The translations under genes were made by a program, and so were the position numbers. From assembly GCA_963674965.2 (NCBI GenBank), contig CAXXFL010000007.1:352001-416000 (forward strand): 64,000 nucleotides of DNA, in the 5' to 3' direction. The notes under the pieces were generated by a model. The model was not told where the DNA came from. It did not search any database and saw nothing but the letters and a program-made list of their open reading frames with translations. Origin of the DNA: a bacterium. GTDB taxonomy: Bacteria; RBG-13-61-14; DATKZS01. Positions 40,918 to 62,807 of this stretch are shown piece by piece; positions within the stretch are counted from its first letter, which is position 1; every line of letters starts with the position of its first letter.

Positions 40918-42339
40918 ATGCTTGACAAGGACATGTTTCCCATAATCCTGGACAGCGTGGCGGAGGGCGTATTCACGGTGGACCTTGATTTCATCGTGAC
41001 TTACTTCAACCGGGCGGCCGAGCGCATAACCGGCTTCACGTCCGAGGAGGCCGTTGGTCAGAGCTGCCACAACGTTTTCCGGGGCTCGGTCTGCCAGGGC
41101 GGCTGCGTCCTGAGGCGGACCCTTTCCACGGGGGAGACCATCAAGGGCATGGAGATCACCATCCTTAACCGGGAGAACAAGGAGATACCCATCAGCGTCT
41201 CGACCGCCCTTCTTCGCGACCGCCTTGGCCGGGTGGTCGGGGGCGTCGAGACCTTCCGGGACCTGTCGGACCTGGCGGCCCTTCGCGCCGAGGTGGGCCG
41301 GTCCTATCGCCTGGGTGACATGGTCAGCAAGAACCACCGGGTGCAGGAGATATTCGCCCTGGCCCCGGACGTGGCCGAGAGTTCGGCCTCGGTCATGCTG
41401 CTGGGCGAGACGGGCTCGGGCAAGGAGGTCCTGGCCAGGGCCCTCCACGGCGAGGGCCCCAGGGCGGACAAGGCATTCGTGCCCGTGAACTGCGCGGCCC
41501 TTCCCGACGCCCTGCTCGAGGCCGAGCTTTTCGGCCACGCCGCGGGGGCCTTCACGGACGCTCGCCGGGCCAGGAAGGGCAGGTTCGCCGCGGCCCACGG
41601 CGGGACCCTATTCCTGGACGAGGTGGGCGACCTCTCGCCCGCCATGCAGGTCAAGCTCCTCCGCGTCCTGGAGGACAAGGCGGTCGAGCCGCTGGGATCG
41701 AACGAGCCGGAGCCGGCCGACGCCCGGATAATTTCGGCCACCCATCGGGACCCTCGCGAGCTTATGCGGCTCGGCCTTTTCAGGGAGGACCTCTTTTATC
41801 GGCTGAACACGGTGGTAATCGAAATCCCTCCCCTCCGGAAGAGGAGGGAGGACGTGCCGCTGCTGGTCGAGCGCTTTATCGAGCTTTTCAACTCGAGGAC
41901 CGGCAAGACCATCGCGACCGCTTCCCCCGAGGCCATGGAGATACTTCTTCGCTACGCCTGGCCCGGCAACGTAAGGGAACTCAAGCACGCCATCGAGCAC
42001 GCCTTCGTGCTCGCGAAGGGACAGACCATCGAGGCGTCCAATTTGCCCCGCGAGGTCGTGGCCGGAGACGCGACCCCCGACTTTTGCCGGCCGGCCGCGG
42101 TGGATAAAGAAGAGCCAGTCCGGGAATTCGCGCGGCCGACAACTTCCGTTCAAAAGAATAACGCGCCCCCTGGCCTGTCGGCCCTCGAGCTTGCCGAGCG
42201 TCCGGTCGTTTTAGCGGCCCTTGAAAGGAACCACTGGAAGCGGGACGCGGCGGCAAAAGAGCTTGGTCTTTCCCGGGCCACTCTCTGGCGGAAGATGAAG
42301 AGGCTCGGGATCGACGACCCGAGGAGAAAAGAGAAATAG
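40918..42339 (+). CDS. PAS-AAA-Fis sigma54 activator, OrpR-like
   Basis: ATG 40918 with SD AGGAG; PAS with [14 protein letters not shown] (C-x8-C-x3-C); [25 protein letters not shown]. Confidence 0.85.
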
Positions 42340-42365
42340 AAAGACGCCCGGGGCCGCCGGGCGCC
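42334..42365 (-). terminator. Terminator of the oxidoreductase operon
   Basis: Minus strand GGCGCCCGG/CCGGGCGTC stem then TTTCTATTT. Confidence 0.55.
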
Positions 42366-42383
42366 ATGATAAGTCTTAATCCG

Positions 42384-43727
42384 TTATTTTTGCGCCCGGG
42401 CTTTTTTCCTTAGTTTTCGCATGATCATGAATTCCTTGACCACTCTTGGAAAGTTGACGTGGTTTTCGGTGGGCGCGATCTTGTGGCCCGAGATGATCTT
42501 GCCCGCCCGCCACAGGTTGTGCCCGGCGTAGCCCCGCATGACGTCGGTCAGCGCCATGTCCACCTCCACGGGTCCGAGAAGCCGCTGGAGCACCAGTCCC
42601 ACGTCCAGGGGCCGGGGCATGCAGCCGGGAACGAACGTTCCCCTGTTCTTGTAGGGCTCGGCGCAGTCGCCCAGCACGATGGTGATCTCGGGGTCCAGGT
42701 CGTCGGGCACGTGCCCGATGGGTTTTCCCACGATGAGGTTCATGGGCTGAAGGTTATCGGCCCCGTAGCGGTCAACGTAGGCGTCGACGGCCCCCTGCAC
42801 CAGCCCGGCGCAGCCCCAGGGGCAGCAGAACTCGGCCCCCTCGAATACGCGCAGCCTGGGACTGAGGTCCTTTAAGGAAACCACGGGCCGCTTGAAGGGC
42901 CGGGCCCGGCCGAGCAACTCGGCCCCGTCGATATCGATGCCCTCCATCTCGCCCGGGCCGTACCCGGCCTCGATGAGCAGCTTAAGGTGCTCGACCTCGT
43001 GGGGCTCGTAGCCGGTAAGGTGGCAGGCCACGCGGTCCACGGCCACGGCGTTGGTCCCGCCCAGAATCAGTCCCAGGTCGACGGGGTCGGCCATGAGCGG
43101 TCCCTGTCCCTCTCCCGCCACCACGCAGTCGGAGATTACCAGGTCCGGCGGCCTGACCTTGTAAAGGTCGGCCAGCTTCTTGTGCAGGTTGTGGTTGTGA
43201 TGGAGGAGCCGGTCTCGCTGGCGGAGCATGCCCAGGTTGTTCTTGACGCTGAGGGTGACCTCGGCGAACATGTTGGTCTTTATCTTGGGCAGGCTGACGT
43301 AAAGGTCGGCGTCAAGCCACAGCCTCGGCACGGGGAACCTGGCCTGGATGAACGGGTCCTTGACCTCGACCTCGACGGTCTCGCGCTCGTCGAGGAAAAC
43401 CGGCTCGGCCAGTCCCTTGAGCATGCCCATGATGCCCACCGAGTAAAAGGACACCCGGCTGGGCCCGATCACGCTCGACTCGCACATGAGCACGCGCCTG
43501 GCCCCCAGCTCGCGCAGGGCCATGCACACGCCCACGGCGAAGCGGGGCTGGGTGATGATGCCCCTCACGATCTCGCTCCGGGATGGATAGACGAAGCTGG
43601 GCTTGACCAGCACCGTCTTGCCGCCCGGGTCGACGCCCGAGGCCTTGAAAATCTCCAAGGCGGTCGAGGCGATCTCCTTCTCGTCGTAGTCCTTTTGGTC
43701 CCTTAGAAAAACCCTGGGCTTATCCAT
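42384..43727 (-). CDS. DUF362 domain protein (putative Fe-S protein)
   Basis: Start ATG 43727 with SD GGAGG; VLVKP, SLPKIKT, TLSVKN, GEGQGP, AVAVD; C-terminal CCPWGC...GDC...PGCMP. Confidence 0.85.
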   Translation of the reverse strand: MDKPRVFLRDQKDYDEKEIASTALEIFKASGVDPGGKTVLVKPSFVYPSRSEIVRGIITQPRFAVGVCMALRELGARRVLMCESSVIGPSRVSFYSVGIMGMLKGLAEPVFLDERETVEVEVKDPFIQARFPVPRLWLDADLYVSLPKIKTNMFAEVTLSVKNNLGMLRQRDRLLHHNHNLHKKLADLYKVRPPDLVISDCVVAGEGQGPLMADPVDLGLILGGTNAVAVDRVACHLTGYEPHEVEHLKLLIEAGYGPGEMEGIDIDGAELLGRARPFKRPVVSLKDLSPRLRVFEGAEFCCPWGCAGLVQGAVDAYVDRYGADNLQPMNLIVGKPIGHVPDDLDPEITIVLGDCAEPYKNRGTFVPGCMPRPLDVGLVLQRLLGPVEVDMALTDVMRGYAGHNLWRAGKIISGHKIAPTENHVNFPRVVKEFMIMRKLRKKARAQK

Positions 43728-43818
43728 CCTGACCTCCACGCGCCCCTCCCGGGGGTCATGAAGCCTTAGTGGGGGCGCCTCGAACGAGCGGCGCCGGTTA
43801 TGTATTTTCGCTTGGAGG

Positions 43819-44373
43819 TCAGACCATGCCGTTATTGACGGCGTAGGCCTTGCCCTTCTCGAAGGCCTCCTTGGCCACGGCGAAGCGGTCCTCCCCCGAG
43901 TCCTTCTCCATGGCCTTGAACACCAGCTCCTCCGTGAGCACGCCGGAAATTTCACGGTAGGCCCCCAGCATGATCATGTTGGCCATCTGGGGTTTTCCCA
44001 TCTCCTGGGCCAGGTCCGTTACCGGTATCCGTAAGGTCTTGTACTCGTCGGTCTCGGTCAGCTTGGTCACTATCGAGGAGTTGACCAGCAGCCGTCCCCC
44101 CGGGTTGACCTCCTTTTTCAGGCGGTTGTAGGCCCCCGACTCCATGGCGATGGCGTTGTCCGAGCTCGAGAGGATGGGAGCCGGTATCTCCTCGTCGGAG
44201 AAGATGACCGTGGCCAGGGCCGGTCCTCCCCTCTGGGTGGCCATGTAAATGGGGAAACGGGTGACGTACTTGTATTTCTCCGAGGCCGCCGCGGCGATGG
44301 CGTAGGCGATGGTAATGACGCCCTGCCCTCCGGTGCCCCCGACAATCAACTCGTGTCTTTTTTCTTCGCTCAT
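43819..44373 (-). CDS. 2-oxoacid:ferredoxin oxidoreductase gamma subunit
   Basis: GGTGGQGV, QRGG, NMIMLGA. Confidence 0.9.
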   Translation of the reverse strand: MSEEKRHELIVGGTGGQGVITIAYAIAAAASEKYKYVTRFPIYMATQRGGPALATVIFSDEEIPAPILSSSDNAIAMESGAYNRLKKEVNPGGRLLVNSSIVTKLTETDEYKTLRIPVTDLAQEMGKPQMANMIMLGAYREISGVLTEELVFKAMEKDSGEDRFAVAKEAFEKGKAYAVNNGMV

Positions 44374-44391
44374 GATCGCGTCTCCAGTCCG

Positions 44392-45153
44392 TCACGCTGG
44401 ACGGTCGGTATTTTTGAACTCGCCGAGGGGGAACTCCCCGATCAGCTTGTCGACCAGGGCCAGGCTGTCCTTGGGCTTGACGTGGTGCCCGGGCGGACAG
44501 GCCGAGAGTATCTCGACGAAGGAGTAGCCGGCGTTTTCCTTGTTCTTCAGGATGGCCGTTACCAGGGCCTTCCTGGTCTGGTTGTAACGCTTGTGAGTGT
44601 TGACCGCGCCGCGGAAGGAATAGACCACTCCCTTGACGTTGGTCATGAGCTCGGCCATGTGGATGGGAAAGCCGGCCACGTCCGTGTCCTTGCCCAGGGG
44701 CGTGGTCGGCGTGACCTGCCCGGGCAGCGACGTGGGGGCCGCCTGTCCGCCGGTGGTACCGAAGTTGGCGTTGTTGAGGAAGATGGTCATCAGCTTCTCG
44801 AAGCGGTTGGCCGCCCCCATGATCTCGCCCATGCCGATGGCCGACAGGTCCCCGTCTCCCTGCATGGTTATGACCAGCTTGTCCTTGCCGAGTGAACGCT
44901 TGACGCCGGTGGCCACCGCGGGGGCCCGGCCGTGAAGCGCCACCACTCCCTCCAGCCCCTTGATGTAGTGCATGCTCACCATCGAGCAGCCGATGCCGGT
45001 GACCAGCACCGAGTCCTGCACCACTCCCGTTTCCTCGAGGGCCTCGGCGAAGCAGCGCAGGATGGTCCCGTAATGGCAGCCGGGGCAGAAATGCGGCTGC
45101 ATCATGGCGTTGAACAGCGCCGGGTTGCCGTGTCTGACTTTTTTATCGGTCAT
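44392..45153 (-). CDS. 2-oxoacid:ferredoxin oxidoreductase beta (TPP-binding) subunit
   Basis: FCPGC, GIGC, HGRAPAVATG, GDGD, NNANFGTTGGQ, SACP; ATGA overlap with alpha. Confidence 0.92.
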   Translation of the reverse strand: MTDKKVRHGNPALFNAMMQPHFCPGCHYGTILRCFAEALEETGVVQDSVLVTGIGCSMVSMHYIKGLEGVVALHGRAPAVATGVKRSLGKDKLVITMQGDGDLSAIGMGEIMGAANRFEKLMTIFLNNANFGTTGGQAAPTSLPGQVTPTTPLGKDTDVAGFPIHMAELMTNVKGVVYSFRGAVNTHKRYNQTRKALVTAILKNKENAGYSFVEILSACPPGHHVKPKDSLALVDKLIGEFPLGEFKNTDRPA

Positions 45154-46229
45154 ATCTCGATCCTCCTCAATTCCTCGATGATCGGCTTCGGATAGAGGAG
45201 CCCCATGCCGCCGGGCTGGTCGCGCTTGTCGATGCCCAAAAAGGAAATGGGCTTTTTGCCCTCGAGCGCCCACTCGACGTCCTGGAGCATCTGTCCCTGG
45301 TTGTCCTCGACCACCAGCACGTGTTTGACGTTGGACGCGGCCTTTTGCAGGGCCTCCTTGGGGAAGGGGTAGAGAGTGATGGGACGGAAAAGTCCCACCT
45401 TCAATCCCTCGGCCCTCGCCTTGGCGATGGCCTCGAGGGACGTGCGGGCCGTCGAGCCCCACGACGCGATCAGTATGTCCGCGTCCTGGGTCATCTTCTC
45501 CTCGTAGCGTATTTCGTTTTGCTCGATCTGGTCGGTCTTCCTCTTGATGATGGGGAAATAGGAGGCGTAATTAAAGGGCATGAAGGAGTCCAGCACCAGG
45601 CGGGCGCCCTTCTTCTCGCCCGAGGTGGCGATGGCCCAGGTCTTTTTCGGCAGTTCCTCCTCGAAGTCGATGGTCTTGACGGTCATCATCTCGGCGCTTT
45701 GTCCGACGATGGCGTCGGGCAGGACCACGCAGAGTATCCTGTACTTGTCGGCCAGGTGGAAGGCCAGCTGCACCAGGTCGTGGCATTCCTGGGGGGACGA
45801 CGGGGCGAGCACGATGCTTTTGCATCCGCCGTGTCCGGCGCTTTTGACGGCGAAGTTGTAGTCCGTCTGGGCGGTGGCGATGGACCCCGACCCCGGCCCT
45901 CCCCTTTGCACGTCGACCACCACGGCGGGAAGCTGCATGGCGTGCATGCAGGAGATGCCCTCCTGCATGAGGCTGTAGCCCGGGCTCGAGGTGGTGGTTA
46001 TTCCTCTTTTGCCGGTGGCCACGAAGCCCAGCAGCATGTTAATGGAAGATATCTCGCTTTCCACCTGGACGAAGGTCCCGCCGTGCTCGGGCAGGTTCTT
46101 GGCGAACCAGGCCGGGATTTCGTTCTGCGGGGTAATGGGATACCCGCAAAAGAACTCGCACCCCGCGGCCACGGCGCCCCATCCGATGGCGTCGTTGCCG
46201 GTGCATAACATCCTTTTTTCTTCAATCAT
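45150..46229 (-). CDS. 2-oxoacid:ferredoxin oxidoreductase alpha subunit (Vor/Kor-like)
   Basis: GYPITPQ, ESEI, TTSSPGYSLMQE, QRGGPG, RPITLYPFP. Confidence 0.92.
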   Translation of the reverse strand: MIEEKRMLCTGNDAIGWGAVAAGCEFFCGYPITPQNEIPAWFAKNLPEHGGTFVQVESEISSINMLLGFVATGKRGITTTSSPGYSLMQEGISCMHAMQLPAVVVDVQRGGPGSGSIATAQTDYNFAVKSAGHGGCKSIVLAPSSPQECHDLVQLAFHLADKYRILCVVLPDAIVGQSAEMMTVKTIDFEEELPKKTWAIATSGEKKGARLVLDSFMPFNYASYFPIIKRKTDQIEQNEIRYEEKMTQDADILIASWGSTARTSLEAIAKARAEGLKVGLFRPITLYPFPKEALQKAASNVKHVLVVEDNQGQMLQDVEWALEGKKPISFLGIDKRDQPGGMGLLYPKPIIEELRRIEI

Positions 46230-46250
46230 TTTTTCCTCCAGCAACCGGCG

Positions 46251-46481
46251 TCAAGACCCGGTCTCCTCCAGCGGCTCGTAGACGGTGACGGCGAAGTCCG
46301 GACAGAGCTTCACGCAGGCCCCGCACCCGGTGCAGTCCTCCGCCTTGACCATGGCCGGGTAGTAGTAGCCGGCCTGGTTGAAGTTTGAAGAAATCTCGAG
46401 ACAATCCTTGGGGCAAGATATGACGCATATGCCGCATCCCTTGCATCTCTTGTCGTCGATGACGACCTCATATACAGCCAT
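46251..46481 (-). CDS. 2x[4Fe-4S] ferredoxin, OFOR delta subunit
   Basis: CKGCGICVISCP and CTGCGACVKLCP; SD AAGGAGG. Confidence 0.92.
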   Translation of the reverse strand: MAVYEVVIDDKRCKGCGICVISCPKDCLEISSNFNQAGYYYPAMVKAEDCTGCGACVKLCPDFAVTVYEPLEETGS

Positions 46482-46502
46482 GAGTCCTCCTTTCAATCGA
46501 AT

Positions 46503-48269
46503 TCAAAGCCTGACGTTGCCGTTGATTATGTCCGCGTAAAGGTCCTCCTCCAGGGGCACGTACTTCTTCGCGTGCCGGTCCCAGAAGTAAACCGGGTCCT
46601 TGATCTTGCCCGGGTCGAAGCCGTCCTTTCTCAGCCCGTACTTGATGTGCTTCATGGTCACCGTGGTGGGAAGCTCCTTGCAAAGGCGGATGAAAAGGGG
46701 ACGGGCGTAATGGGGAAGACACTCGTCAACGTACTCGGACACCGCGTCGCGGTCCCACTCGCAATCGAGCACCACCGCCGCCATGCCCGCCGCGCCCTCC
46801 TGGCCGGGAATCTGGACGCCGTAGACGTTAACGTCCGACACGCCCGGGCAGGAGTCCAGGATATACTCGACCTCCTTGGTGGCCACGTTCTCCGACTTCC
46901 AGCGGAAGGTGTCGCCCGACCGGTCCACGAAGCTTATCCAGTTGTCCTCATGCAGCTTGACCACGTCGCCGGTCACGAAGAACTCGTCCCACGAGTTGAA
47001 AACGCCCTTGACCAGTTTCTTCCTCGTCTCCTCGTCGTCGATGTATCCGTCAAAGCCAAGGAGGTTGAAGATGGAGTTGATGCGGCCGATGAGCATCCCT
47101 TCCTCGCCCTGCTCGACCTTGTCGCACCTTCCCTTTTCGTTCCTCATCAGGGCCTCGTTCTCCGGGTCCCATTTAACCACGTAGGCCTGGAGGGGCAGCA
47201 GCTTCCCCAGGAAACCGGGCCTGCCCTCGACGTTCATCACGCCCACGCTGGTCTCGGTGGCCCCGTAGAACTCGAATATCTTTTCGATCTCGAACCTCTT
47301 CTGGAAGGCCGTCCATATATTCGAGCGCAGGCCCACGGTGATGATCCTTTTGATCTTGTGCTTCTTCTCCTCGGGAGACTCGGGCTGGGCCATCAGGTAC
47401 CTGGGCATCTCGCCGATAAATGTCGCGCCCGTGGCCCCGAAGCGGATGGCCTCCTTCCAGTAATCCGAGGCCGAGAACCAGCGCCGAAGGCCTATGGCCG
47501 CGCCCGTGGCCATGGACCCGCCCCATCCCACGAACATGGCGATCGAGTGGTAAAGGGGAAGAGGAACGTAGATGACGTCGTCGTTCGAGAACTTGGACAG
47601 GGCGTAACCCAGGGCGTAGCCCGAGAAGAAAACCCGGCGGTTGCTCACGCGCGCCGCCTTGGGAAGCCCCGTGGTGCCCGAGGTGTAGATGTTCATGATG
47701 TGGTCGTCGAACTTGGGCTTGACCTTGTTTTTCGGCTCCGAGGCGGCGGCGCAGGAAACGGCCTTGCCCAGGTCGCGCGCCGCGTAGTCGCCCTCCGCCT
47801 CGCCGTCCCAAATCCAGACGTCCGACTTGGCCAGGGGCACGTCGCTCATGACGGCGTCCACGTGCTCGATGAGCGAGCGGCCCGACACGATCCATTTGGG
47901 GCCGCAAATGGTAAAGGCGTGGACAAGGGTCTTCTGCCGCAGGTTGGTGTTGATAAGCGACGCGACCATGCCGATCTTGTTAAGGCCGATTATAAGGGCC
48001 AGGTACTCGGGGCAGTTCTCCATGTAGACCGCCGCCACGTCGCCCTTTTTTCCGCCCAGGGCCGTGAAGTGGTTGGCCACCTTGTTGGCCAGGACGTTGA
48101 GTTCCTTATAGGTGAGTTTCCGGTCCTCGAAGAATATGGCCGTGTTGTCCGGCGTTTTGCTCGCCCACTTCTCGATGGTCGCGTACGTCGAGCACTCCCC
48201 TTTAATCAGGTGGTAAAAGGACACCAGAAGCCGCGCCCCTACCTTTACTTCCTCCCAACTAATAAACAT
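46503..48269 (-). CDS. Long-chain acyl-CoA synthetase, FATP/very-long-chain type
   Basis: Start ATG 48269; IYTSGTTGLPKAA, LPLYHS, EFYGATE, DRSGDTFRWKSENV. Confidence 0.9.
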   Translation of the reverse strand: MFISWEEVKVGARLLVSFYHLIKGECSTYATIEKWASKTPDNTAIFFEDRKLTYKELNVLANKVANHFTALGGKKGDVAAVYMENCPEYLALIIGLNKIGMVASLINTNLRQKTLVHAFTICGPKWIVSGRSLIEHVDAVMSDVPLAKSDVWIWDGEAEGDYAARDLGKAVSCAAASEPKNKVKPKFDDHIMNIYTSGTTGLPKAARVSNRRVFFSGYALGYALSKFSNDDVIYVPLPLYHSIAMFVGWGGSMATGAAIGLRRWFSASDYWKEAIRFGATGATFIGEMPRYLMAQPESPEEKKHKIKRIITVGLRSNIWTAFQKRFEIEKIFEFYGATETSVGVMNVEGRPGFLGKLLPLQAYVVKWDPENEALMRNEKGRCDKVEQGEEGMLIGRINSIFNLLGFDGYIDDEETRKKLVKGVFNSWDEFFVTGDVVKLHEDNWISFVDRSGDTFRWKSENVATKEVEYILDSCPGVSDVNVYGVQIPGQEGAAGMAAVVLDCEWDRDAVSEYVDECLPHYARPLFIRLCKELPTTVTMKHIKYGLRKDGFDPGKIKDPVYFWDRHAKKYVPLEEDLYADIINGNVRL

Positions 48270-48353
48270 GCCGACCGTCCTTTCATCGGCGCCCCGTTGG
48301 CGCCTTCTCCCGTTCTCCGCGCCGCTTTCGCGGCGGCCCATTCGGCCCCGATG

Positions 48354-49688
48354 CTAGAGTTGTTCCTTCATATAGGGGGTCCATTTCCTTTGTTTCGCCT
48401 TTTCGGCGACCACCTCGATAAACGCGTCTATCCTGCTCATGGTCTGGGCCTCGTTGAAGCTGGAGGGATCGACCATGTCGCTCTCGAGGAGGAGGCTGGG
48501 CGCTCCCAGTTCCTCCATCAAGGTATGCTGTATCTCCATCTGGTTGACGTAAAGAGCCCGGCAGGTGGGCGTGTAGCTGAGGATGGCCCCGTCGCAGTTG
48601 TAGTCCACCACCGCCTTGACCACCGAGGCCACCATGCCGTTCATGCCCCATTTCTCCGGCTCCCGGTTGGGGTTGCCGCTGGACTGGGCGGCGCAGCCGT
48701 AGGCCGTGTCGATGACCACTACCCCGCCCTTTTGCTCGAAGTAGTTGATCAGTCCCAGGTTGTACCAGAAGGGTATGCCGCTCCAGACCAGGCGGAACTT
48801 CTCATCCTCGACGATGCCGATCTTGTTATCCATCCGCTCCTTGACCTCGGCCCGAAGCCGGGAGTAAAAGTCGTCGGCCAGGGGCGTGCCCGGCATGTAC
48901 ATCCCCGGAAACATGGCCGCGAAGGCGTCGGCCGACCCCATGGGCGTGGGAATGGCCTTCCTGTACTCGTTGATCTCCCGCCTGATTTTGCTGACCCTGC
49001 CGCTGGCCTTCTGAATCTCGGCCAGGCGCTTGGCGTCCATTTTTTTGCCGCACACGTCCTCGAGGAACTTGATATAGCCGGCGTAGTTCTGGCCGCCGAA
49101 GCCCATGGTATGGGGGGCGTCCTTCCTGCCTATCTGGATGCCGGCCGTCTCCATGTCGCCGCCCGTGATGGTGGCGCCCTTCCTGCCGATGGGAGGCATC
49201 TCGGGGGCCTCGAGAACGTAAACGGGAACCTCCAGCATTTCGCCCATCAGCTCCCACCACTTGACCCGCGTGTCGCAAACGGCCGTGGTGGTGATGAGCA
49301 TGTCGGGCCGCTTCATGCCGCCGAGGGGAGCGTCCTCGGGGAACCCCTCGAGGATGTAGCCGATGGTGATGCGGGCGTAGCCGCACATCTCGCGGGAAAG
49401 TCCCCACTCCTCGGCGCGGCTGATGAAGCGGAACGGGTTGCCCCGGGTCGCCACCACCGTGCCGTACTGCTCCGGATAATAGGCCAGAACGTCCATGGCC
49501 TGCATGGGCTGCTTGGGCACCGCCACCCCGCACCAGGCTATCTTCTGGCCCGGGTCCCCCACCTTCTCCGCCCGCTCGGCGTAATAGTCCTTGACTATCT
49601 GAGATATCTCCTGAGTGGTCTTAAGGTGCTTTTTGCCCCGCATGCGGTTGGCTTTTTTTACCTCTTCCGAGTCCTTTAATTCGCTCAT
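48354..49688 (-). CDS. 2-hydroxyacyl-CoA dehydratase / class I benzoyl-CoA reductase family subunit (HgdA/FldB/BzdO-like)
   Basis: YYPEQ, MCGY, CDTRVKWW, TCR, ESDMVD, RIDAFIE. Confidence 0.85.
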   Translation of the reverse strand: MSELKDSEEVKKANRMRGKKHLKTTQEISQIVKDYYAERAEKVGDPGQKIAWCGVAVPKQPMQAMDVLAYYPEQYGTVVATRGNPFRFISRAEEWGLSREMCGYARITIGYILEGFPEDAPLGGMKRPDMLITTTAVCDTRVKWWELMGEMLEVPVYVLEAPEMPPIGRKGATITGGDMETAGIQIGRKDAPHTMGFGGQNYAGYIKFLEDVCGKKMDAKRLAEIQKASGRVSKIRREINEYRKAIPTPMGSADAFAAMFPGMYMPGTPLADDFYSRLRAEVKERMDNKIGIVEDEKFRLVWSGIPFWYNLGLINYFEQKGGVVVIDTAYGCAAQSSGNPNREPEKWGMNGMVASVVKAVVDYNCDGAILSYTPTCRALYVNQMEIQHTLMEELGAPSLLLESDMVDPSSFNEAQTMSRIDAFIEVVAEKAKQRKWTPYMKEQL

Positions 49689-50815
49689 TCCCCAAGTATC
49701 TCCGTGAACGCTTTTACGCGGTTGGTTATGGCCTCGTTAATCCCCGCCGTCTGGTCGCCCTGGATGTAGAGGACCTTGTGGCCCGCCTCCCGGGTCCGCT
49801 GGTTTAAAAGGGGATACTGGAACAACTGGGCGTCGCAGCAGCGCAGGATGTAGAAGATCACCCCGTCCACGGCGTAGTCGTCTCCCAGCGACAGGATATG
49901 CTCCCTCCTGGGCGCCATGGAGCCGACGCTTCGGGGACAGGGCAGCTTGTTAAGGTATCTTTTGGCCAGGGCGTCGATGGGCTTCTCGAGGTCTTCTCCC
50001 ACCTCGTCCCAGAAATAGCGGCTGCCGGTGCACACGTCGTCGGCCACCACCCAGGCTCCCGAGTCCTCGATCGCCCCGATCAGGTCCAGGTCCTCGAGCA
50101 TGCTGGCGGTCACGAGCACGCGGGGGCGTCTTTCCAGGCTCGACTCTTTCCCCTCCATTTCCGCCAGGTAATCCCTTGCCCATCGGTTGAAGTCTTCCCT
50201 CGGGGCCAGGATCGAGGCCAGGGCGACGGTAAAGGCGTCGCGGCCGCTGATGACGGGAGGGTTCGAGGCCCGGAGCCGGTAGACGCGCTTCATGAGCCTC
50301 CTGGTCTCGTCGTATATCTTGATGGCCTCCCGCAGGGAGTCGTCGGATATCTCAGTCCCCAGGTGGTTCTCGAGCTCCTTTTTCAGGCGCTTTATCTCGC
50401 CCACCATGACCGCCTGGGCGTTCTTGTCGAACACCTTGTGGGGCACCCACACGTAATGTATGAAATCGGGCGATTCCATGCGGTAGGCCCACAGGTCGTA
50501 CATCTTGGTTATCACGTCGCAGGCGTGAGGCACGACCAGCCCGTCCAGGTAGTCGAAGACTCCCTGCAGGGCCTGCTCGAAACAGCGTCGGGAAAAGGAG
50601 CAGACGTTGGACTGGAGGTGGTTGTCCGCTTTTTCCACGTTGCCCACCCCGCCGGTTATACGGATGGTATCGTAGCCCGCCGCGTAAAGGACCTCCTCGG
50701 GCACGTAGTCGCAGAAGTAACCCGCCAGCTTGCGGCCGGTCTCCTTTTTACGCCCGGCTATCCACTCGTGACGATTGGACACGACCTCGCGAAAGGGCGC
50801 CATTTTGTCGCTCAT
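49685..50815 (-). CDS. 2-hydroxyacyl-CoA dehydratase / class I benzoyl-CoA reductase family subunit (HgdB/FldC/BzdN-like)
   Basis: CDYVPEEVLYAAG, VCSF, ACD, DDVCTGSRYF, CCD, RVKAFTE; ATGA overlaps at both ends. Confidence 0.85.
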   Translation of the reverse strand: MSDKMAPFREVVSNRHEWIAGRKKETGRKLAGYFCDYVPEEVLYAAGYDTIRITGGVGNVEKADNHLQSNVCSFSRRCFEQALQGVFDYLDGLVVPHACDVITKMYDLWAYRMESPDFIHYVWVPHKVFDKNAQAVMVGEIKRLKKELENHLGTEISDDSLREAIKIYDETRRLMKRVYRLRASNPPVISGRDAFTVALASILAPREDFNRWARDYLAEMEGKESSLERRPRVLVTASMLEDLDLIGAIEDSGAWVVADDVCTGSRYFWDEVGEDLEKPIDALAKRYLNKLPCPRSVGSMAPRREHILSLGDDYAVDGVIFYILRCCDAQLFQYPLLNQRTREAGHKVLYIQGDQTAGINEAITNRVKAFTEILGE

Positions 50816-52638
50816 CTCCACGTCTCCAATACCTGCTCCCTCCCGTTTTGCCTGAACTCGTTCACCAGCGATTCCAAGTCGGATTTCATAAAGGGCCTGT
50901 ACCCGTCAAGGCCGCGCCTGGTGTGCCAAATGGTCCCCTCCGGCGCGTACTCGAGGTTGTAGTACTCGTGCTTGAGAGGACGGACCAGAATCTTCTGGGT
51001 GCGGGTGTACTCGAAATCGCTCACCACCCTGACGAAGTCGGGTTTCCATTTTCTGTCCATGTCCCCGCCCGAGGCCTGTCTTTCCATGTAGTCGTTGAAG
51101 GCGGCGGGATCGAAGGATTTTCCCTCCTTCATCTGGAGGGCGACCATGACCCACTCGTCCGACACCGGGCAGGGCACTCCGAAGGCCACGGCCAGCTCGG
51201 CGTCGGGAAAGGCGGCCGCCACCGAGGCCACGTTCTCGGCCGAGAAGTTCTCTCCGTCCTTTCTGATCCAGTCGTCGGTCCTGCCGTCGAAATACAGATA
51301 CCTTTTATTCGCCACCACCCTGATGTGGCCCAGGTCTCCCGAGTGGTAGACGCCGTCGCGTATTTTCGAGGAGGTGGCCTCGGGGTTGTTATGGTAGCCC
51401 TCGAAGGAGGGCAGGGCCCCGCCCTCCCTTACTATCTCTCCCACCGCCTCCTGGTAGTTGAGGAAGCGGCCCTTCTCGTCGTACTCGGCGGGCGGGCACT
51501 CCCGGCCGTGCTCGTTGAAAATCTTCACGTTGCGGTCCATGATGAAGCCCACGCTTCCGGGCGGGTCTCCCAGCCTTCTCACGGTGGCGATGGCCATCTC
51601 GGTGGTGCCGTATCCCTCCATCATGTCCTCGAGCCCGAAGTAGCGGGTGAACTTTTCCTGGTCCACCTGGGAGGCCCCGTTGCCGTAGGCCACGCGGAGC
51701 TTGTTGGCCGGGCTTTGGGCCACGTTTCTTACGATCTCCTCCTCGCTCCCGTACTTTTTCTCGAGGGCCAGGATAACGTAATGCACCGGCTGGCCCACGT
51801 AGTTCCAGTAGGTCACCCCGTATTTCAGGACGTCCTCGGAGAAGCCGCCGGCGCTGAAGCGGTCGCGGAGCACGGTCGAGGCGTTCCAGTGAAAGGCGCT
51901 CATCACGCCCAGGAACATGGCGTTCGAGTGGAAAAGGGGCATGCAGACGTAGCCCCGGTCGTTCTCCTTGAGCTGGAGGGCCACGCCCGTGGCCATGCCC
52001 AGGTTCATGAGCTTGCCTTGCGAGTTCCTGATGCCCTTGGGCAGCCCGGTGGTCCCCGAGGTGTAGATGATCATGAGGGTCGAGTCCATGGCCACCTCGG
52101 CCTCGGGCCGGACGAGGGCCTCGTCGCCCATCTCGCCTCTCAAGTCCGAAACCGCTTTGTCCAGGGGGGGAAGATCGGGGGGCACGAAGCCCTCCTTGCC
52201 CGTGTCCACCAGATAGGTCCGCTCGGGCGTTATGTACTCGAGGTTGTCCATGACGTCCATTACGCGGTCCTGGTGGCGGTCGTCGGTGATGAGGCTCCTG
52301 GCCTCGGACTGGTTGAGGACGTCCGCCAGCACCTGCCCCCTCAGGCCGGCGTTGACCCCGAACAGGGTCCCGCCGTTCAGGGCGCAGCCTCCATAGGCGA
52401 AGATAAAGGAGGGGTGGTTGTCCATGAACACGGCGGCGCGGGGGGCCCGATTGCCTCCGCCCGCTTTATTATGGTCCCTCCTGAAGAGGTGGGCGAAGGT
52501 GGAGGACTCCCGGTAAAAGTCCGCGTAAGCGTACTCCTTGTCCTGGAAGATGAAAAAGGTCTTGTCCTTTATTTTTTCGTCCAGGGCCTTGGCCTCCATC
52601 TGGTCGGCCACGGTCCTTTGAAACTTCTTTTCCGCCAT
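50812..52638 (-). CDS. AMP-forming acyl-CoA ligase (FadD17/FATP-related)
   Basis: Start ATG 52638; IYTSGTTGLPKG, MPLFHSNA, EGYGTTE, SGDLG, GRTDDWIRKDGEN. Confidence 0.88.
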   Translation of the reverse strand: MAEKKFQRTVADQMEAKALDEKIKDKTFFIFQDKEYAYADFYRESSTFAHLFRRDHNKAGGGNRAPRAAVFMDNHPSFIFAYGGCALNGGTLFGVNAGLRGQVLADVLNQSEARSLITDDRHQDRVMDVMDNLEYITPERTYLVDTGKEGFVPPDLPPLDKAVSDLRGEMGDEALVRPEAEVAMDSTLMIIYTSGTTGLPKGIRNSQGKLMNLGMATGVALQLKENDRGYVCMPLFHSNAMFLGVMSAFHWNASTVLRDRFSAGGFSEDVLKYGVTYWNYVGQPVHYVILALEKKYGSEEEIVRNVAQSPANKLRVAYGNGASQVDQEKFTRYFGLEDMMEGYGTTEMAIATVRRLGDPPGSVGFIMDRNVKIFNEHGRECPPAEYDEKGRFLNYQEAVGEIVREGGALPSFEGYHNNPEATSSKIRDGVYHSGDLGHIRVVANKRYLYFDGRTDDWIRKDGENFSAENVASVAAAFPDAELAVAFGVPCPVSDEWVMVALQMKEGKSFDPAAFNDYMERQASGGDMDRKWKPDFVRVVSDFEYTRTQKILVRPLKHEYYNLEYAPEGTIWHTRRGLDGYRPFMKSDLESLVNEFRQNGREQVLETWR

Positions 52639-52679
52639 GTCTGGTCCCTTCGCGGTTATTTTTATTGGGGGTGGGCCGT

Positions 52680-53657
52680 TCAGGCCTCGCCCTTTTCCCT
52701 GGCCACCTCGGCCAGGCGCTTGGCCTCGATGGTCTTGACCAGCCCATACATGGTCTCGTTGACCGGCGTGGGCACGCCGTGCTCCTGGCCCAGCTTGATG
52801 ATGGCGCCGTTTATATAGTCGATCTCGGTGACGCGTCCGGCCTCGATATCCTGGAGCATGCTCGGCTTGGGGGGGGAGAAGGTCTTGACCTTGGCCGCCA
52901 TCTTCGCGCCCATCATGATCATGTCGATGAAGTTGCGCTGGTGCTTGATCTTCACGCCCATGGCGTCGGACAGGGCGAAGTACTCGTTGGCCAGGCCCTT
53001 GAAGACGGGCCCGATGGACTCGGTGTTGGCCATGTCGATGACGTTCATGCCCGTGACCGCGGCGGTGCAGTTGAGGACGGCGTTCCACAGTATCTTGTTC
53101 CACACCACCTCGTCGGCGGTGTCGTAAATCTTCACCGGCAGCTTGAGGGCCTTGAGGGCCGCGGCCAACTCCTCGAGGCGGGGCGTCTTGCCGCCGGCCA
53201 TGGGGCCCAGGTCCACGCCGTCGGCGCCGGGGAAATAGACGATGTGAGTGGGGGCCTCGACCAGGAAGTTATGGGCCGTGGTCACGGCCACAATGCGCTC
53301 GGGCTTGCCCACGGCCTCCTCGATGACCTTGAGGTTTCCGTAGCCGTTCTGGAAGCTGGCCACCATGGTATCGTCGCCGATCACGGACCTGGCGCCCTCA
53401 ACGGCGGCCTTGGTGTGGTAGGCCTTGGTGCCCAGTATGACCACGTCCGGCTTGCCGGCGTCGGCCAGGTTGGCGGTGATGTTGACCTTGTACTCGCCGC
53501 TTTTACCGCCGGCCTGGCTGATGGTAAGGCCCTTTTCCTTTACCTGCCTGACGTAGTCCTCGCGCACGTCGTAAAGGGTCACGTCGGCCCCGGCCTCAGT
53601 TAAAAAGGCCCCGACGAAACCGCCCAAAGCTCCCGCGCCAACGATCAATAACTTCAT
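52680..53657 (-). CDS. PanE/ApbA-family ketopantoate reductase-like 2-oxoacid reductase
   Basis: GAGALG, TKAY, QNG, WNK...N, SMLQD...TEIDYING. Confidence 0.9.
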   Translation of the reverse strand: MKLLIVGAGALGGFVGAFLTEAGADVTLYDVREDYVRQVKEKGLTISQAGGKSGEYKVNITANLADAGKPDVVILGTKAYHTKAAVEGARSVIGDDTMVASFQNGYGNLKVIEEAVGKPERIVAVTTAHNFLVEAPTHIVYFPGADGVDLGPMAGGKTPRLEELAAALKALKLPVKIYDTADEVVWNKILWNAVLNCTAAVTGMNVIDMANTESIGPVFKGLANEYFALSDAMGVKIKHQRNFIDMIMMGAKMAAKVKTFSPPKPSMLQDIEAGRVTEIDYINGAIIKLGQEHGVPTPVNETMYGLVKTIEAKRLAEVAREKGEA

Positions 53658-53773
53658 GTTCTTACCTCCATGCGTCTGATGGATAATCGCGCCGTCCCGT
53701 GCCCTTTGGGCCTTGGAACGTTAGCCGGTTTTAATTAATGTCCGGCTTATCTCAATTTTAAATATCTTAGCCT

Positions 53774-53961
53774 GGAGCCTCTTGCAAAATTCCCGCTTTG
53801 GAGTGCGGCGGCTCGACGCCGCTTTTCTTCCGAGCGGCTTGACGCGAGGCAAGCCGGTGTATTAATAGGCCTTGTCAAGCCAAAGCCCTCGAAAGCGGTC
53901 TCAAGCGACCGCACTCCAAAGCGGCTATGCCGCAAAGAAAAGGACTTTTGCAAGAAGCTCC
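53774..53961. mobile_element. MITE-like element (about 188 bp) enclosing a REP doublet (REPIN)
   Basis: 20-bp TIRs GGAGCCTCTTGCAAAATTCC and GGACTTTTGCAAGAAGCTCC (18/20); inner inverted 33-bp REP copies at 53793-53825 and 53892-53924. Confidence 0.7.
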
Positions 53962-53985
53962 CTAGTCTCGTATTTCTTATCCATA

Positions 53986-54013
53986 AATATATCAAACGTT
54001 ATTTCCAGTTCAA
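53986..54013 (-). promoter_or_regulatory. Proximal promoter/operator of the operon
   Basis: Minus strand TTGAAC-N16-TATATT with extended -10 TG; operator ATATCAAACGTTAT at 53989-54002. Confidence 0.6.
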
Positions 54014-54125
54014 CAAAAAAACGGCCCTTTCAAAACGACAATTAATGAGGCCTGTATTTTCCGATCCCGCCGCCGCGACTCGCGTTCTCCTCGTCCCGCA
54101 AGTTAGAGCCTTTTAATGAAGCATT

Positions 54126-54153
54126 AATATATCAAACGTTATCTGGATGTCAA
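54126..54153 (-). promoter_or_regulatory. Distal promoter/operator of the operon
   Basis: Minus strand TTGACA-N16-TATATT with extended -10 TG; identical 17-mer AATATATCAAACGTTAT 140 bp from the proximal copy. Confidence 0.65.
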
Positions 54154-54223
54154 CCCCGAATAACAAGAAGCGAAAATATTATGCCCGCCGGAAACCAAAA
54201 ACCAAAAAAACGCCGCGGCGGGG

Positions 54224-54703
54224 TCAAGGAAACCAAAGATCGCGCTCCACGTTTTCCAGATTTCCCTTTTCGTCAATGGTCCAGACGTCGCATTGGAGGT
54301 CGGGGTCAACGTTGCCGACGCCGTATATGGGAAAGCCCGTCCTGGAAGGAGTGGGAGGATCGAAATCGCATACCCAAAATTTCCGCGTCGCCTCGATCAT
54401 ATCGGACCCGCAATAGTAGCTATAACTGATGTTTCCCTCAGGTCCCCAGCCCAAGGCGGAAAAACAATCCGGCCCCGAGGCGAAAACGCCGTTAGCCGCG
54501 TGATAATTTTCCTGGGCCTTGTAGATGTCCCGGAGAATGTGTTTAACCTCGGCTTGAACGGTCTTGGCGTTTTGATCCTCGGCCACCTTGACCACGAACA
54601 TGATAACCAATACCCAGATTATGGGGGGAACCTGTATCGAAACGGCGATTATAAGATATCGCCTCTTTTTGGAAGGCGCCCGGTATTGCCCCATCTGGCC
54701 CAT
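54224..54703 (-). CDS. Pilin-like protein (Myxococcus PilA-like head) lacking the G|FxxxE prepilin site
   Basis: TM helix then QAEVKHILRDIYKAQENY...LGWGPEG...YSY...GNVDPD..CDVWTI. Confidence 0.6.
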   Translation of the reverse strand: MGQMGQYRAPSKKRRYLIIAVSIQVPPIIWVLVIMFVVKVAEDQNAKTVQAEVKHILRDIYKAQENYHAANGVFASGPDCFSALGWGPEGNISYSYYCGSDMIEATRKFWVCDFDPPTPSRTGFPIYGVGNVDPDLQCDVWTIDEKGNLENVERDLWFP

Positions 54704-54718
54704 CCGCAAAGGTCCTTG

Positions 54719-55600: not shown

Positions 55601-55727
55601 GTCCGTCTCCTTCTCTCCGCCGACGCGGGTTATTCTGGGCCATGACTCTCGGCCCCGCTTTAACGCCGCCGATTACAACATGGAATTATTTCGTTGTAAA
55701 GAAAGGGCACATAACGAAACGGGAGCC

Positions 55728-61805: not shown

Positions 61806-61844
61806 GCGCCCGGCGGCGGAAATATTATTCGATTGGAGGAAAAG

Positions 61845-62549: not shown

Positions 62550-62639
62550 AGGCCCCTTTTGTCAGGAAGGAGGGGCCGCTCAGGTTTTTCCCGCCCGGCT
62601 AATATTCGGCGCTCCCTTTGCGGGCTTGATATAGTTGGC

Positions 62640-62684
62640 TTGACAATTTCTTGGGCTGCATATAACATTCATAACGATCGTTAC
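62640..62684 (+). promoter_or_regulatory. Thiolase promoter with operator at the start site
   Basis: TTGACA-N17-TAACAT; ATAACGATCGTTAC at 62671-62684. Confidence 0.65.
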
Positions 62685-62779
62685 GCGGAGGATGCGGCCT
62701 GAGGCAAATTCATCTTTTTCCGCCGCAGCGATCGAAAGCGGACGCCATTTACTTTGCTCGCGAAGGAAGGCAAAGCAAG

Positions 62780-62793: not shown

Positions 62794-62807
62794 TGAAGGG
62801 GGAACAA

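Follow-up and report, generated by a model that had tools for sequence, protein, structure and literature searches.

Gene Organization of the Locus

On the minus strand of the window, by which we mean the whole 64-kb stretch of DNA that was analysed, ten co-oriented genes (g01 to g10, positions 42384-53657) follow one another with gaps of at most 91 nt and three ATGA overlaps, and all ten gave strong Pfam matches (E-values 1e-12 to 1e-89). A gap of 41 nt separates g01 from g02, ATGA overlaps join g02 to g03 and g03 to g04, 84 nt lie between g04 and g05 (or 12 nt if the longer form of g05 is taken), gaps of 6 nt each flank g06, g07 and g08 share the third ATGA overlap, and 18 nt and 91 nt precede g09 and g10, respectively. 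At 42365-42343 on the same strand, 19 nt past the g10 stop and between g10 and a convergent sigma-54 activator gene, a stem of 9 pairs (8 G-C) with a T-run behind it makes up a terminator-like hairpin, which belongs to a class of sites that is not enriched here (18 in the region versus 13.4 +/- 3.5 in shuffles). Upstream of g01, two minus-strand sites (54153-54126 and 54013-53986), each containing a copy of ATAACGTTTGATATATT, resemble sigma-70 promoters by consensus match only, with four such sites found in the region and 2.9 +/- 1.6 expected. Gene calls, Pfam matches and the hairpin thus bear out the layout described in the initial annotation, which had noted ten co-oriented genes with short gaps or ATGA overlaps ending at one terminator, and the Pfam matches likewise confirm its gene content of a PanE-like reductase, two CoA ligases, a dehydratase-type pair, an OFOR and a DUF362 protein. 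The outer coordinates given there follow from taking g10 at its longest ORF; agreement with the database protein puts the g10 start at 43727.

Predicted Functions of the Flanking Enzymes

The first gene, g01 (52680-53657, minus strand), encodes a 325-aa NAD(P)H oxidoreductase of the PanE/ApbA family (Pfam ApbA 113.8 bits, ApbA_C 112.8 bits) that scores 230 against TIGR00745 (cut-off 141.35) and reaches no equivalog cut-off in NCBIfam. Among 13 genomes of the small phylum, orthologues (65-71% identity) occur only in the three other genomes that bear the operon, whereas a paralogue about 30% identical to g01 is present in all 13. Because the extra paralogue is confined to operon-bearing genomes and the other is found in every genome, a housekeeping role as ketopantoate reductase is unlikely for g01. 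This distribution weakens the objection, anticipated in the initial annotation, that the enzyme serves ketopantoate, as far as a housekeeping role is concerned. A preprint places D-2-hydroxyisocaproate and D-mandelate dehydrogenases within the PanE family (bioRxiv 10.1101/2024.01.05.573888), and g01 is a predicted 2-oxoacid/(R)-2-hydroxyacid reductase.

Two genes encode AMP-forming acyl-CoA ligases. The product of g02 (50812-52638, minus strand; 608 aa; Pfam AMP-binding 159 bits) is FadD17/CasI/FATP-like: its top NCBIfam model is CasI (327.6, cut-off 900, with no cut-off reached) and its top PDB match is FATP2 (119.5 bits). Orthologues with 63-68% identity are found in the same three other operon-bearing genomes. 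The second ligase, g05 (46503-48269, minus strand, alternative start 48341; 588 aa; AMP-binding 186 bits, AMP-binding_C 44.9 bits), is of the FATP or very-long-chain type, scoring 625 against NF006134, whose NCBIfam cut-off is 625, and 382.8 bits against FATP2 in the PDB.

A four-subunit OFOR is encoded by g06 to g09, all on the minus strand. The delta subunit g06 (46251-46496; 81 aa) is of the 2x[4Fe-4S] ferredoxin type (Pfam Fer4 family) and scores 63.5 against OGOR_delta (cut-off 125), while the alpha subunit g07 (45150-46244; 364 aa; POR_N 156 bits, PFOR_II 72.1 bits) scores 392.7 against the VorB subfamily model NF005507 (cut-off 399) and has orthologues 71-77% identical in the same three genomes. 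The TPP-binding beta subunit g08 (44392-45153; 253 aa; TPP_enzyme_C 58.2 bits) scores 112.4 against PRK11866 (cut-off 402), and the gamma subunit g09 (43819-44373; 184 aa) matches POR with 109.2 bits.

The last gene, g10 (42384-43727, minus strand), encodes a 447-aa DUF362 protein (Pfam DUF362 123.6 bits). Its AF2 model (pLDDT 93.5) adopts a two-domain fold that, as modelled, is LarA-like, a feature beyond the scope of the initial annotation: twelve LarA-family PDB entries match with Z of 13.3-15.8, and the next entry reaches 6.2. No match to Lar_N was found at the sequence level, hhalign giving only an E of 0.14, and this weak alignment pairs the LarA Lys with K162 of g10 and the LarA His with an Asn. 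Four conserved cysteines in the C-terminal half (C302, C306 and C355 invariant, C369 nearly so) suggest an Fe-S site. The LarA superfamily is described as nickel-pincer 2-hydroxyacid racemases and epimerases (PMC11770544). Besides the fold, g10 shares with it a Pfam clan (CL0471, which covers both DUF362 and DUF2088), and the host genome also encodes LarA and LarC; unlike the superfamily, g10 has cysteines suggestive of an Fe-S site, and the DUF362 family is uncharacterised.

The HGD-D Subunit Pair

At the center of the operon lie two HGD-D paralogues of the BCR/HAD family, g03 and g04, both on the minus strand. The beta subunit g03 (49685-50815; 376 aa; Pfam HGD-D 298.6 bits) is of the BzdN/HadC type, and its NCBIfam scores are led by double_cubane (203.8, cut-off 350), followed by HadC (190.7, cut-off 700), BzdN (189.8, cut-off 453.8) and BcrC (167.8, cut-off 421). 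Against the PDB, BzdN is the best match (181.2 bits, versus 162.3 for HadC). Six cysteines of g03, an observation that goes beyond the initial annotation, align with BzdN Cys36, 73, 100, 263, 293 and 327 and are conserved in 59 orthologues; in BzdN, these six ligate an [8Fe-9S] site (PDB 8S02; PMC11971306). Two of the six are missing from HadC, the one dehydratase beta subunit whose structure is known, and two are also missing from MbdN, a true BCR subunit. Because MbdN lacks two, and because the relative at locus L044, which sits among dehydrogenase and CoA-transferase genes, has all six, the six-cysteine pattern does not separate dehydratase from reductase activity.

A quick beta-subunit tree of 70 rows, none of them a BcrC-type reference, recovered a 20-row g03 orthogroup with 100% support, apart from a 7-row BzdN clade that includes the two proteins passing TIGR03190. 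The clade nearest to the orthogroup contains L044, L054 and L050, with a support of only 81. An AU test did not reject joining the g03 orthogroup with the BzdN clade (p-AU 0.219, log-likelihood difference 19.09). Neither subunit reaches the curated NCBIfam cut-off for HadBC, BzdNO, BcrBC or DCCP. The possibility, named in the initial annotation, that the subunits fall inside bona fide BCR clades is therefore not what we observe, since both score below the curated cut-offs and the beta subunit stands outside the BzdN clade, its sister position to that clade being unrejected.

The alpha subunit g04 (48354-49688; 444 aa; Pfam HGD-D 182.3 bits), of the substrate-binding HadB/BzdO type, is nearer to HadB than to BzdO or MbdO by sequence, profile and model. 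Its NCBIfam scores are 142.6 for HadB (cut-off 750), 90.8 for BzdO (cut-off 448.6) and 68.8 for BcrB (cut-off 486.6); phmmer against the PDB gives 115.6 for HadB versus 82.5 and 75.8 for BCR subunits; a 31-sequence profile gives 152.6, 121.5 and 115.1 bits for HadB, MbdO and BzdO, respectively; and structural comparison gives Z of 35.7 to HadB versus 32.4-32.7 to BzdO/MbdO, a lead of about 3 Z units in a model with a pLDDT of only 70.7. The three cluster cysteines are conserved, the position of BzdO His131 is an Arg, and an insert of about 19 residues is specific to the orthogroup. A scan of the 115 nearest alpha representatives turned up no curated label.

Conservation and Genomic Context

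Four of the 13 phylum genomes, the same ones each time, contain orthologues of g01, g02, g04 and g07, and the gene order is kept on metagenome contigs; the operon is an all-or-none accessory module. Co-distribution and conserved order together uphold the expectation that the gene combination recurs in other genomes. Where close loci reach far enough, ligase 1 is present in 10 of 11, the PanE gene in 7 of 8, ligase 2 in 6 of 8 (it is missing in L034) and the OFOR in 5 of 5. The DUF362 gene follows the OFOR in two of four syntenic loci reaching far enough and is missing in L011 and L034. In a group with 51-54% identity, the pair is surrounded by unrelated genes only. No ATPase gene was found in the window, in any of 15 close loci or in the 8 loci that show this 51-54% identity. 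A stand-alone activase is encoded in all 13 phylum genomes, and another locus of the same genome carries a four-gene set with two ATPases.

At L043, L044 and L054, which make up the clade nearest to the g03 orthogroup, more distant relatives of the pair have as neighbors a four-subunit OFOR, between one and four CoA-transferases of family III and a 2-hydroxyacid dehydrogenase of the D-isomer type, a context that is classical dehydratase gene logic. These three loci are not independent: a single contig carries both L044 and L054, L043 is a mirror of L044, and one or two organisms are the probable source of all three. Like the operon, they have a CDxR motif in the alpha subunit, an OFOR whose alpha and beta chains share 43-50% identity with g07 and g08, and no adjacent activator; the beta subunit has six cysteines in L044 and has lost one in L054. 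They differ in having only 33-35% identity to g03 and a canonical dehydrogenase with CoA-transferases in place of PanE and ligases, and they are themselves uncharacterised metagenomic clusters.

Comparison With Known Systems

In the had operon of Clostridioides difficile, a 2-oxoacid reductase is encoded alongside HadBC. HadBC with its activator HadI (PDB 3O3M/N/O) resembles g03/g04 as a heterodimer of two HGD-D paralogues, and HadB, the best solved relative of g04, shares with it three cysteines for a [4Fe-4S] cluster and a conserved Glu. Identity is, however, about 24%, scores fall far under the HadB and HadC equivalog cut-offs, and HadC has four of the six cysteines present in g03. The reductase in had belongs to the D-2-hydroxyacid dehydrogenase family instead of the PanE type, and had uses a CoA-transferase where the operon has ATP-dependent FATP-like ligases; the operon lacks an activator, an acyl-CoA dehydrogenase and Etf, includes an OFOR, and carries the g04 insert.

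In BzdNO, which forms the catalytic module of the Bzd-type class I benzoyl-CoA reductase (PDB 8S02; PMC11971306), the subunit architecture is the same; g03 aligns with the six BzdN cysteine ligands and g04 with three BzdO cysteines, and no solved relative of g03 matches it better than BzdN. Unlike BzdNO, g03 and g04 score under the TIGR03190/03191 cut-offs, g03 lies outside the BzdN clade, and the neighboring genes include none for BzdPQ-like ATPases.

Peroxisomal alpha-oxidation of phytanic acid employs a FATP2-type ligase, an O2-dependent 2-hydroxylase and a TPP-dependent lyase that releases formyl-CoA. The common ground is a FATP-type ligase and a TPP enzyme for removing C1 from an acid with a 2-substituent, which makes it an analogy only: the chemistry differs throughout, homology ends at the ligase, and the operon would rely on a radical dehydratase and an OFOR linked to ferredoxin.

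A Proposed Route and Its Alternatives

We hypothesize, as somewhat better than an even guess, that in its host, an uncultured anaerobe, the operon converts a 2-oxo or 2-hydroxy acid to an enoyl-CoA, with ligases in place of the CoA-transferase. Gene content, operon structure, conservation, family placement and folds are observations; we infer every catalytic step of this route, its direction and its substrate. Using NAD(P)H, g01 would interconvert the 2-oxo acid and the (R)-2-hydroxy acid. A FATP-like ligase (g02 and/or g05) would then spend ATP to form the 2-hydroxyacyl-CoA, taking the part that a family III CoA-transferase plays in the classical had/fld pathways, since the product would remain a CoA ester. 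The g03/g04 heterodimer, started with a single low-potential electron by a stand-alone ATPase activator encoded elsewhere in the genome, would remove water to yield the 2-enoyl-CoA, which would enter beta-oxidation. The OFOR would oxidatively decarboxylate the same 2-oxo acid to an acyl-CoA one carbon shorter, producing the reduced ferredoxin needed by the activator, and g10 would be an accessory LarA-fold iron-sulfur protein that may have the hydroxy acid as its substrate or take part in electron delivery. If this route holds, the substrate leans slightly toward a lipophilic acid, whether of medium or long chain or bulky in some other way, the ligase families being the sole ground for that lean; otherwise it would be a branched-chain or aromatic 2-oxo acid from amino acids. 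Known dehydratase pathways rely on CoA-transferases instead of FATP-like ligases, and the proposed route does not explain why two of the latter would be required.

That the pair is instead an ATP-dependent two-electron reductase, BCR- or DCCP-like, whose substrate is some aromatic, alicyclic or unsaturated acyl-CoA supplied by the ligases, strikes us as unlikely. The OFOR and ferredoxin would then only supply low-potential electrons, for which there is precedent in Thauera, g01 would reduce a keto group elsewhere in the pathway, and ligases would fit, since aromatic acid degradation uses these and not transferases as a rule. The conserved BzdN/DCCP double-cubane cysteines of g03, its top NCBIfam and PDB matches, and its unrejected position beside the BzdN clade all fit such an enzyme. 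Such reductases, however, need ATPases in stoichiometric amounts, yet no copy of the operon pairs ATPases with the catalytic genes and the same genome keeps its two-ATPase set at another locus; every BCR equivalog score is far below its cut-off, g04 is nearer to HadB by four measures and has Arg for BzdO His131, and the cysteines are not diagnostic, given the loss of two in MbdN and the presence of all six in L044. Because g04 is HadB-like, the relatives have a dehydrogenase/CoA-transferase context and operon copies lack an ATPase, we favor a dehydratase over the BCR alternative, as the initial annotation had done; its further scheme of anaerobic alpha-oxidation or one-carbon elongation is unsupported speculation.

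More doubtful still is the view that the ten genes are co-transcribed without forming one pathway, with, for example, the OFOR and DUF362 protein serving as a general ferredoxin-reducing unit. The irregular presence of DUF362 and ligase 2, foreign insertions tolerated between g04, g05 and g06 in L027 and L028, and an OFOR paralogue (58-70% identical) that stands alone elsewhere in the genome without pathway neighbors would suit it, but the OFOR follows the pair in every close locus reaching far enough, a homologous OFOR recurs beside the distant relatives, and all tested parts have orthologues in the same four genomes. Least probable in our view is the same chemistry run in the synthetic direction, the OFOR carboxylating an acyl-CoA to a 2-oxo acid that is reduced, re-activated, dehydrated and then reduced again elsewhere, for a net one-carbon elongation. 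In principle, both OFORs and dehydratases of this kind can work in either direction, the gene set covers every step but the enoyl-CoA reductase, and L011 has two NMO/FabK-like genes directly after the OFOR. Each carbon would nonetheless cost one ATP (to AMP) and reduced ferredoxin without obvious gain, crotonase genes directly upstream of PanE in L009, L027 and L028 fit degradation, and a patchy accessory module is typical of catabolic islands. Returning to the dehydratase route, we consider it somewhat more probable than not that the operon is an accessory catabolic module built around an oxygen-sensitive ketyl-radical enzyme of the 2-hydroxyacyl-CoA dehydratase type.

Operon Layout and Flanking Signals

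The initial annotation described ten co-oriented genes at 42384–53657 ending at one terminator, and both observations were borne out: each of the ten minus-strand genes (g01–g10, numbered from the upstream end) has a strong Pfam match, and g10 is followed after 19 nt by a G+C-rich hairpin and a T-run. The operon begins with a PanE/ApbA-family gene (g01) and an AMP-binding ligase (g02, ligase 1), followed by two adjacent HGD-D (PF06050) paralogues that encode the beta (g03, start 50815, Pfam 298.6 bits) and alpha (g04, 182.3 bits) subunits of a BCR/HAD-family pair. A second AMP-binding ligase (g05, ligase 2) precedes a 2-oxoacid:ferredoxin oxidoreductase (OFOR), encoded as a 2x[4Fe-4S] ferredoxin or delta subunit (g06), an alpha subunit with POR_N and PFOR_II domains (g07), a TPP-type beta subunit (g08, start 45153) and a POR-type gamma subunit (g09), and the last gene encodes a DUF362 protein (g10, 42384–43727, start 43727). 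From g01 to g10 the junctions are 41 nt, ATGA, ATGA, 84 nt (or 12), 6, 6, ATGA, 18, and 91 nt, the second ATGA overlap joining g03 to g04.

Two sigma-70-like promoter matches lie upstream of g01 (53986–54153, minus strand), each containing one copy of the 17-mer ATAACGTTTGATATATT; the copies stand ~140 nt apart and may represent promoters in tandem or a repeated operator. Because neither class of signal is enriched over shuffles, the terminator hairpin and the sigma-70-like sites are given as positions and not as proof. A sigma-54 pattern search returned 42 matches vs 47 expected, with zero upstream of g01, and an Rfam search of 41000–56000 returned zero matches at E 0.1 or better. A PAS/sigma-54 activator/HTH_8 regulator gene with many paralogues in the genome (40885–42339, plus strand) converges on the operon end; since none of 46 related loci has a match to it beside the operon, we do not tie this regulator to the operon.

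Conservation and Genomic Context

The genome around the window comprises 6.5 Mb in 7 contigs, and the collection contains just 13 species genomes from its phylum. The operon module is all-or-none and occurs in four of the 13, the carriers being kin and not independent samples. The same three other genomes hold orthologues of g04 (81–85% identity), g01 (65–71%), g02 (63–68%), and g07 (71–77%). Within a library of 1.84 billion proteins, the alpha orthogroup forms one 50% cluster among 1446 family matches.

For a wider comparison, 46 related loci were compared by tblastn, 15 of which encode g03 at 59% identity or more, and synteny was counted only in loci that extend far enough. Ligase 1 stands upstream of g03 in 10 of 11 such loci (L032 lacks it and L033 has a 45% version), PanE upstream of ligase 1 in 7/8, ligase 2 downstream of g04 in 6/8 (L034 and L032 lack it), and the OFOR downstream in all five. 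DUF362 follows the OFOR in two of four loci, L009 and L037, which seemingly derive from one organism; where it would stand, L011 has two NMO/FabK-like genes and an APH kinase, and L034 has a PMT_2 gene. In a group of eight loci at 51–54% identity, the pair occurs by itself among unrelated neighbors. Operon copies broken by foreign insertions are found in L027 (12485–14124 and 16158–17700) and L028, in which the g04–g05 interval holds a D12 DNA methyltransferase and one ORF, and the g05–g06 interval holds three small ORFs.

Several flanking genes recur with the operon or its relatives. A crotonase gene lies directly upstream of PanE in L009, L027, and L028. A DUF7065 gene (54719–55600, minus strand) is kept next to the operon in L010, L027, and L028 at 67–69% identity, on the opposite strand and alongside an APH-family kinase, a small ORF, and a crotonase. 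ECH and APH genes also stand near a 46% paralogue of ligase 1 elsewhere in the window's own genome (C1:501515). The lva and ACAD10/11 systems use APH kinases that act on 4-hydroxyacyl-CoAs, so the neighborhood of the operon could be a catabolic island for hydroxy acids. A 161-aa ORF (54224–54709, minus strand) separates the DUF7065 gene from the operon promoter region; it looks type IV pilin-like, has no Pfam match, and is followed by a T-rich hairpin. Crotonase and thiolase genes lie on the opposite, plus strand (61833–63986), 8 kb upstream of the operon.

The g03/g04 Pair

The initial annotation had proposed an anaerobic operon for 2-hydroxy/2-oxo fatty acids, with a BCR-like reductase as its alternative, and the relationships of the two HGD-D proteins bear directly on this choice. 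By sequence and in its predicted structure, the alpha subunit g04 resembles HadB more closely than the BCR subunits in each comparison. It reaches no NCBIfam cut-off (HadB 142.6/750, BzdO 90.8/448.6, BcrB 68.8/486.55), and HadB also scores highest against the PDB with phmmer (HadB 115.6, MbdO 82.5, BzdO 75.8 bits) and with a 31-sequence profile (152.6, 121.5, and 115.1 bits, respectively). An AF2 model, with a pLDDT of only 70.7, gives Z 35.7 to HadB vs 32.4–32.7 to BCR subunits. The three cluster cysteines of g04 align with those of HadB and with BzdO Cys95/128/380, as expected of a dehydratase alpha subunit, in which three Cys ligands leave one Fe site open; they are invariant in 31 orthologues, and the Glu common to HadB and BzdO (BzdO Glu65) is retained. 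The BzdO His131 position is an invariant Arg in g04, which also carries an insert of ~19 residues specific to its orthogroup. Of the 115 nearest alpha representatives scanned (of the top 150), none reaches any NCBIfam model at E 1e-95 or better.

The beta subunit g03 likewise falls under every NCBIfam cut-off, with scores of 203.8/350 for double_cubane (NF040772), 190.7/700 for HadC, 189.8/453.8 for BzdN, and 167.8/421.15 for BcrC; HgdAB, FldBC, and LcdAB models were not among the NCBIfam matches listed. The double_cubane score under cut-off, together with the distinct alpha partner, separates g03 from DCCP/YjiM proteins, which are single-gene homodimers. Six BzdN cysteines are listed by residue number as ligands of the [8Fe-9S] double-cubane cluster (PMC11971306). 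All six are matched in the g03 alignment and conserved in 59 orthologues, and the six-Cys pattern is found in 13 of 17 sampled relatives. HadC lacks two of the six, as does MbdN, and MbdO lacks the BzdO His131. Because of these MbdN and MbdO differences, the six cysteines and BzdO His131/Glu65 do not define the BCR family. The six-Cys pattern was rejected as a reductase marker, since the losses in HadC and MbdN show that it does not tell reductases and dehydratases apart.

A quick maximum-likelihood tree of beta subunits (70 rows, with no labelled BcrC-type or HgdB/FldC-type reference) places the g03 orthogroup (20 rows, 100% support) apart from the BzdN clade (seven rows, 100% support), which contains both proteins passing TIGR03190. 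The nearest clade to the g03 orthogroup consists of L044, L054, and L050, with support of only 81. A Fusobacterium activase-alpha-beta locus falls on a long branch with poor alignment at the Cys columns, and nothing was drawn from it. In the tree g03 thus lies outside the BzdN clade, but a topology that unites the two as sisters is not rejected by an AU test (p-AU 0.219).

In three relatives, L043, L044, and L054, the pair is accompanied by a D-isomer 2-hydroxyacid dehydrogenase, by between one and four CoA-transferases of family III, and by an OFOR of four subunits, of which alpha and beta are 43–50% identical to g07 and g08 (L044 and L054 share a contig, and the L043 locus mirrors that of L044). 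Apart from the added OFOR, this set follows the textbook gene logic of 2-hydroxyacyl-CoA dehydratase pathways. Unlike them, the window operon has no CoA-transferase, and a PanE-family reductase and two ligases replace the dehydrogenase and transferases.

The genome as a whole has twelve HGD-D genes, and the BCR and HadBC equivalog cut-offs are missed by every member of the HGD-D/BcrAD_BadFG set. One true DCCP is encoded at C1:1567283 (499.1 bits vs cut-off 350), and two very long ORFs of 1422 and 1556 aa are fused ATPase-HGD proteins.

Ligases, PanE-Like Reductase, and OFOR

A lipophilic substrate is suggested only by the similarities of the two ligases. Ligase 2 scores 625 against NF006134, exactly at its cut-off of 625, and matches FATP2 over residues 31–581 (382.8 bits), and ligase 1 is nearest to CasI, FadD1, and FadD17, far under their cut-offs, with a weak FATP2 match (119.5 bits).

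The g01 protein has both ApbA N- and C-terminal domains and scores 230 against TIGR00745 (subfamily cut-off 141.35), with no equivalog cut-off reached. The genome has three strong ApbA paralogues, g01 among them, and none lies next to panBC. A role for g01 as the housekeeping PanE is unlikely, since g01 is confined to operon carriers and a ~30% identical paralogue is present in every genome of the phylum. The PanE family includes D-2-hydroxyisocaproate and D-mandelate dehydrogenases (bioRxiv 10.1101/2024.01.05.573888).

The OFOR is complete, its alpha, beta, gamma, and delta subunits being encoded together. The alpha subunit scores just under the cut-off of the VorB subfamily model (392.7 vs 399), and the other three subunits are far under every substrate-class cut-off. 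A second four-subunit OFOR, 58–70% identical to g06–g09, stands alone at C3:366355–369040 of the same genome; it adjoins a MerR/TetR-type regulator gene and has one in-frame TAG in the alpha match.

Activating ATPases and the DUF362 Protein

The genome contains 11 BcrAD_BadFG matches, none within the window. Among the 46 related loci, activase queries match only L055, L061, and L062, and none of the operon-bearing or 51–54% identity loci. Three stand-alone activases in the genome pass TIGR00241; none is in the operon, and one is kept in 13/13 phylum genomes. The same genome encodes a four-gene BzdNOPQ-like set with two ATPases (C5:761.5–765.6 kb), suggesting that ATPases needed in bulk are encoded alongside their catalytic genes. 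An operon lacking ATPase genes fits catalytic rather than bulk activation.

At C2:602517–604192, a stand-alone activase of the archerase type is followed 8–11 nt on by a DUF362-Fer4 gene. The activase with a directly following DUF362-Fer4 gene is found in 7/13 phylum genomes, and the activase alone in 13/13. This adjacency hints at a role for DUF362 proteins in the activation system.

The g10 model is confident (pLDDT 93.5) and is predicted to adopt the LarA two-domain fold. LarA-family structures occupy 13 of the first 14 Foldseek ranks, and 12 LarA-family entries align with Z 13.3–15.8 and rmsd 3.1–4.4 over 209–229 residues, the next entry scoring 6.2. A weak hhalign alignment to LarA (E 0.14) pairs the cofactor-binding Lys of LarA with K162, and one LarA His with an Asn. 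Residues K148, K150, H177, D200, D231, C302, C306, and C355 are invariant in the g10 subfamily. A sequence search of the PDB gave zero matches at E 1 or better, and a profile search gave as its sole match the Cys motif of the [NiFe] hydrogenase small subunit at E 2, which is not significant. The C-terminal half of g10 has a conserved GDCA...PGCPPxP that resembles the cluster-binding motif of that subunit. An ESM Atlas search returned only DUF362 clusters. Pfam assigns g10 to DUF362 and not to Lar_N; DUF362 and the LarA N-domain belong to one Pfam clan, CL0471 (PMC11770544). The genome carries LarC and LarA genes and 14 DUF362 genes.

Proposed Function of the Operon

We consider the chances slightly better than even that the operon is a ligase-fed module that takes 2-oxo/2-hydroxy acids to enoyl-CoA with a dedicated OFOR. 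That g03/g04 instead form an ATP-dependent reductase seems improbable to us: the two ATPase subunits of a class I BCR are absent from the window, every BCR equivalog cut-off is missed by both proteins, and g03 falls outside the BzdN clade, to set against the AU result that leaves a sister position to that clade standing.

A more specific version, itself speculative and in our view rather unlikely, is that g03/g04 represent a new functional class of the BCR/HAD family: a dehydratase that would store electrons in an [8Fe-9S] double cubane and whose (R)-2-hydroxyacyl-CoA substrates would be long-chain or bulky. Acting with the FATP-type ligases, the PanE-type dehydrogenase, and the OFOR, such an enzyme might allow strict anaerobes to consume the 2-hydroxy fatty acids found in sphingolipids and in lipid A. 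These acids would pass intact into β-oxidation or lose C1 without O2 in an anaerobic α-oxidation, and the LarA-fold DUF362 protein would serve as a hydroxyacid racemase or as an electron link to the activating ATPase.

A description of the ten-gene set was not found in the literature searched, at title and abstract level. To our knowledge, every 2-hydroxyacyl-CoA dehydratase pathway described so far belongs to amino-acid fermentation in Clostridia and Fusobacteria and recycles CoA via a transferase. If the dehydratase reading is right, the operon would differ from these pathways in its ATP-dependent ligase entry, its non-orthologous reductase, the OFOR that it includes, and the double cubane predicted for its beta subunit. 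DUF362, a large uncharacterized family, is connected here with the LarA fold, and conserved gene adjacency connects it with an activating ATPase. Were the dehydratase reading true, radical dehydration chemistry would extend to sediment degraders that live by respiration or syntrophy, an [8Fe-9S] cluster would cease to mark an enzyme as a reductase, and an anoxic fate of 2-hydroxy acids would become testable.
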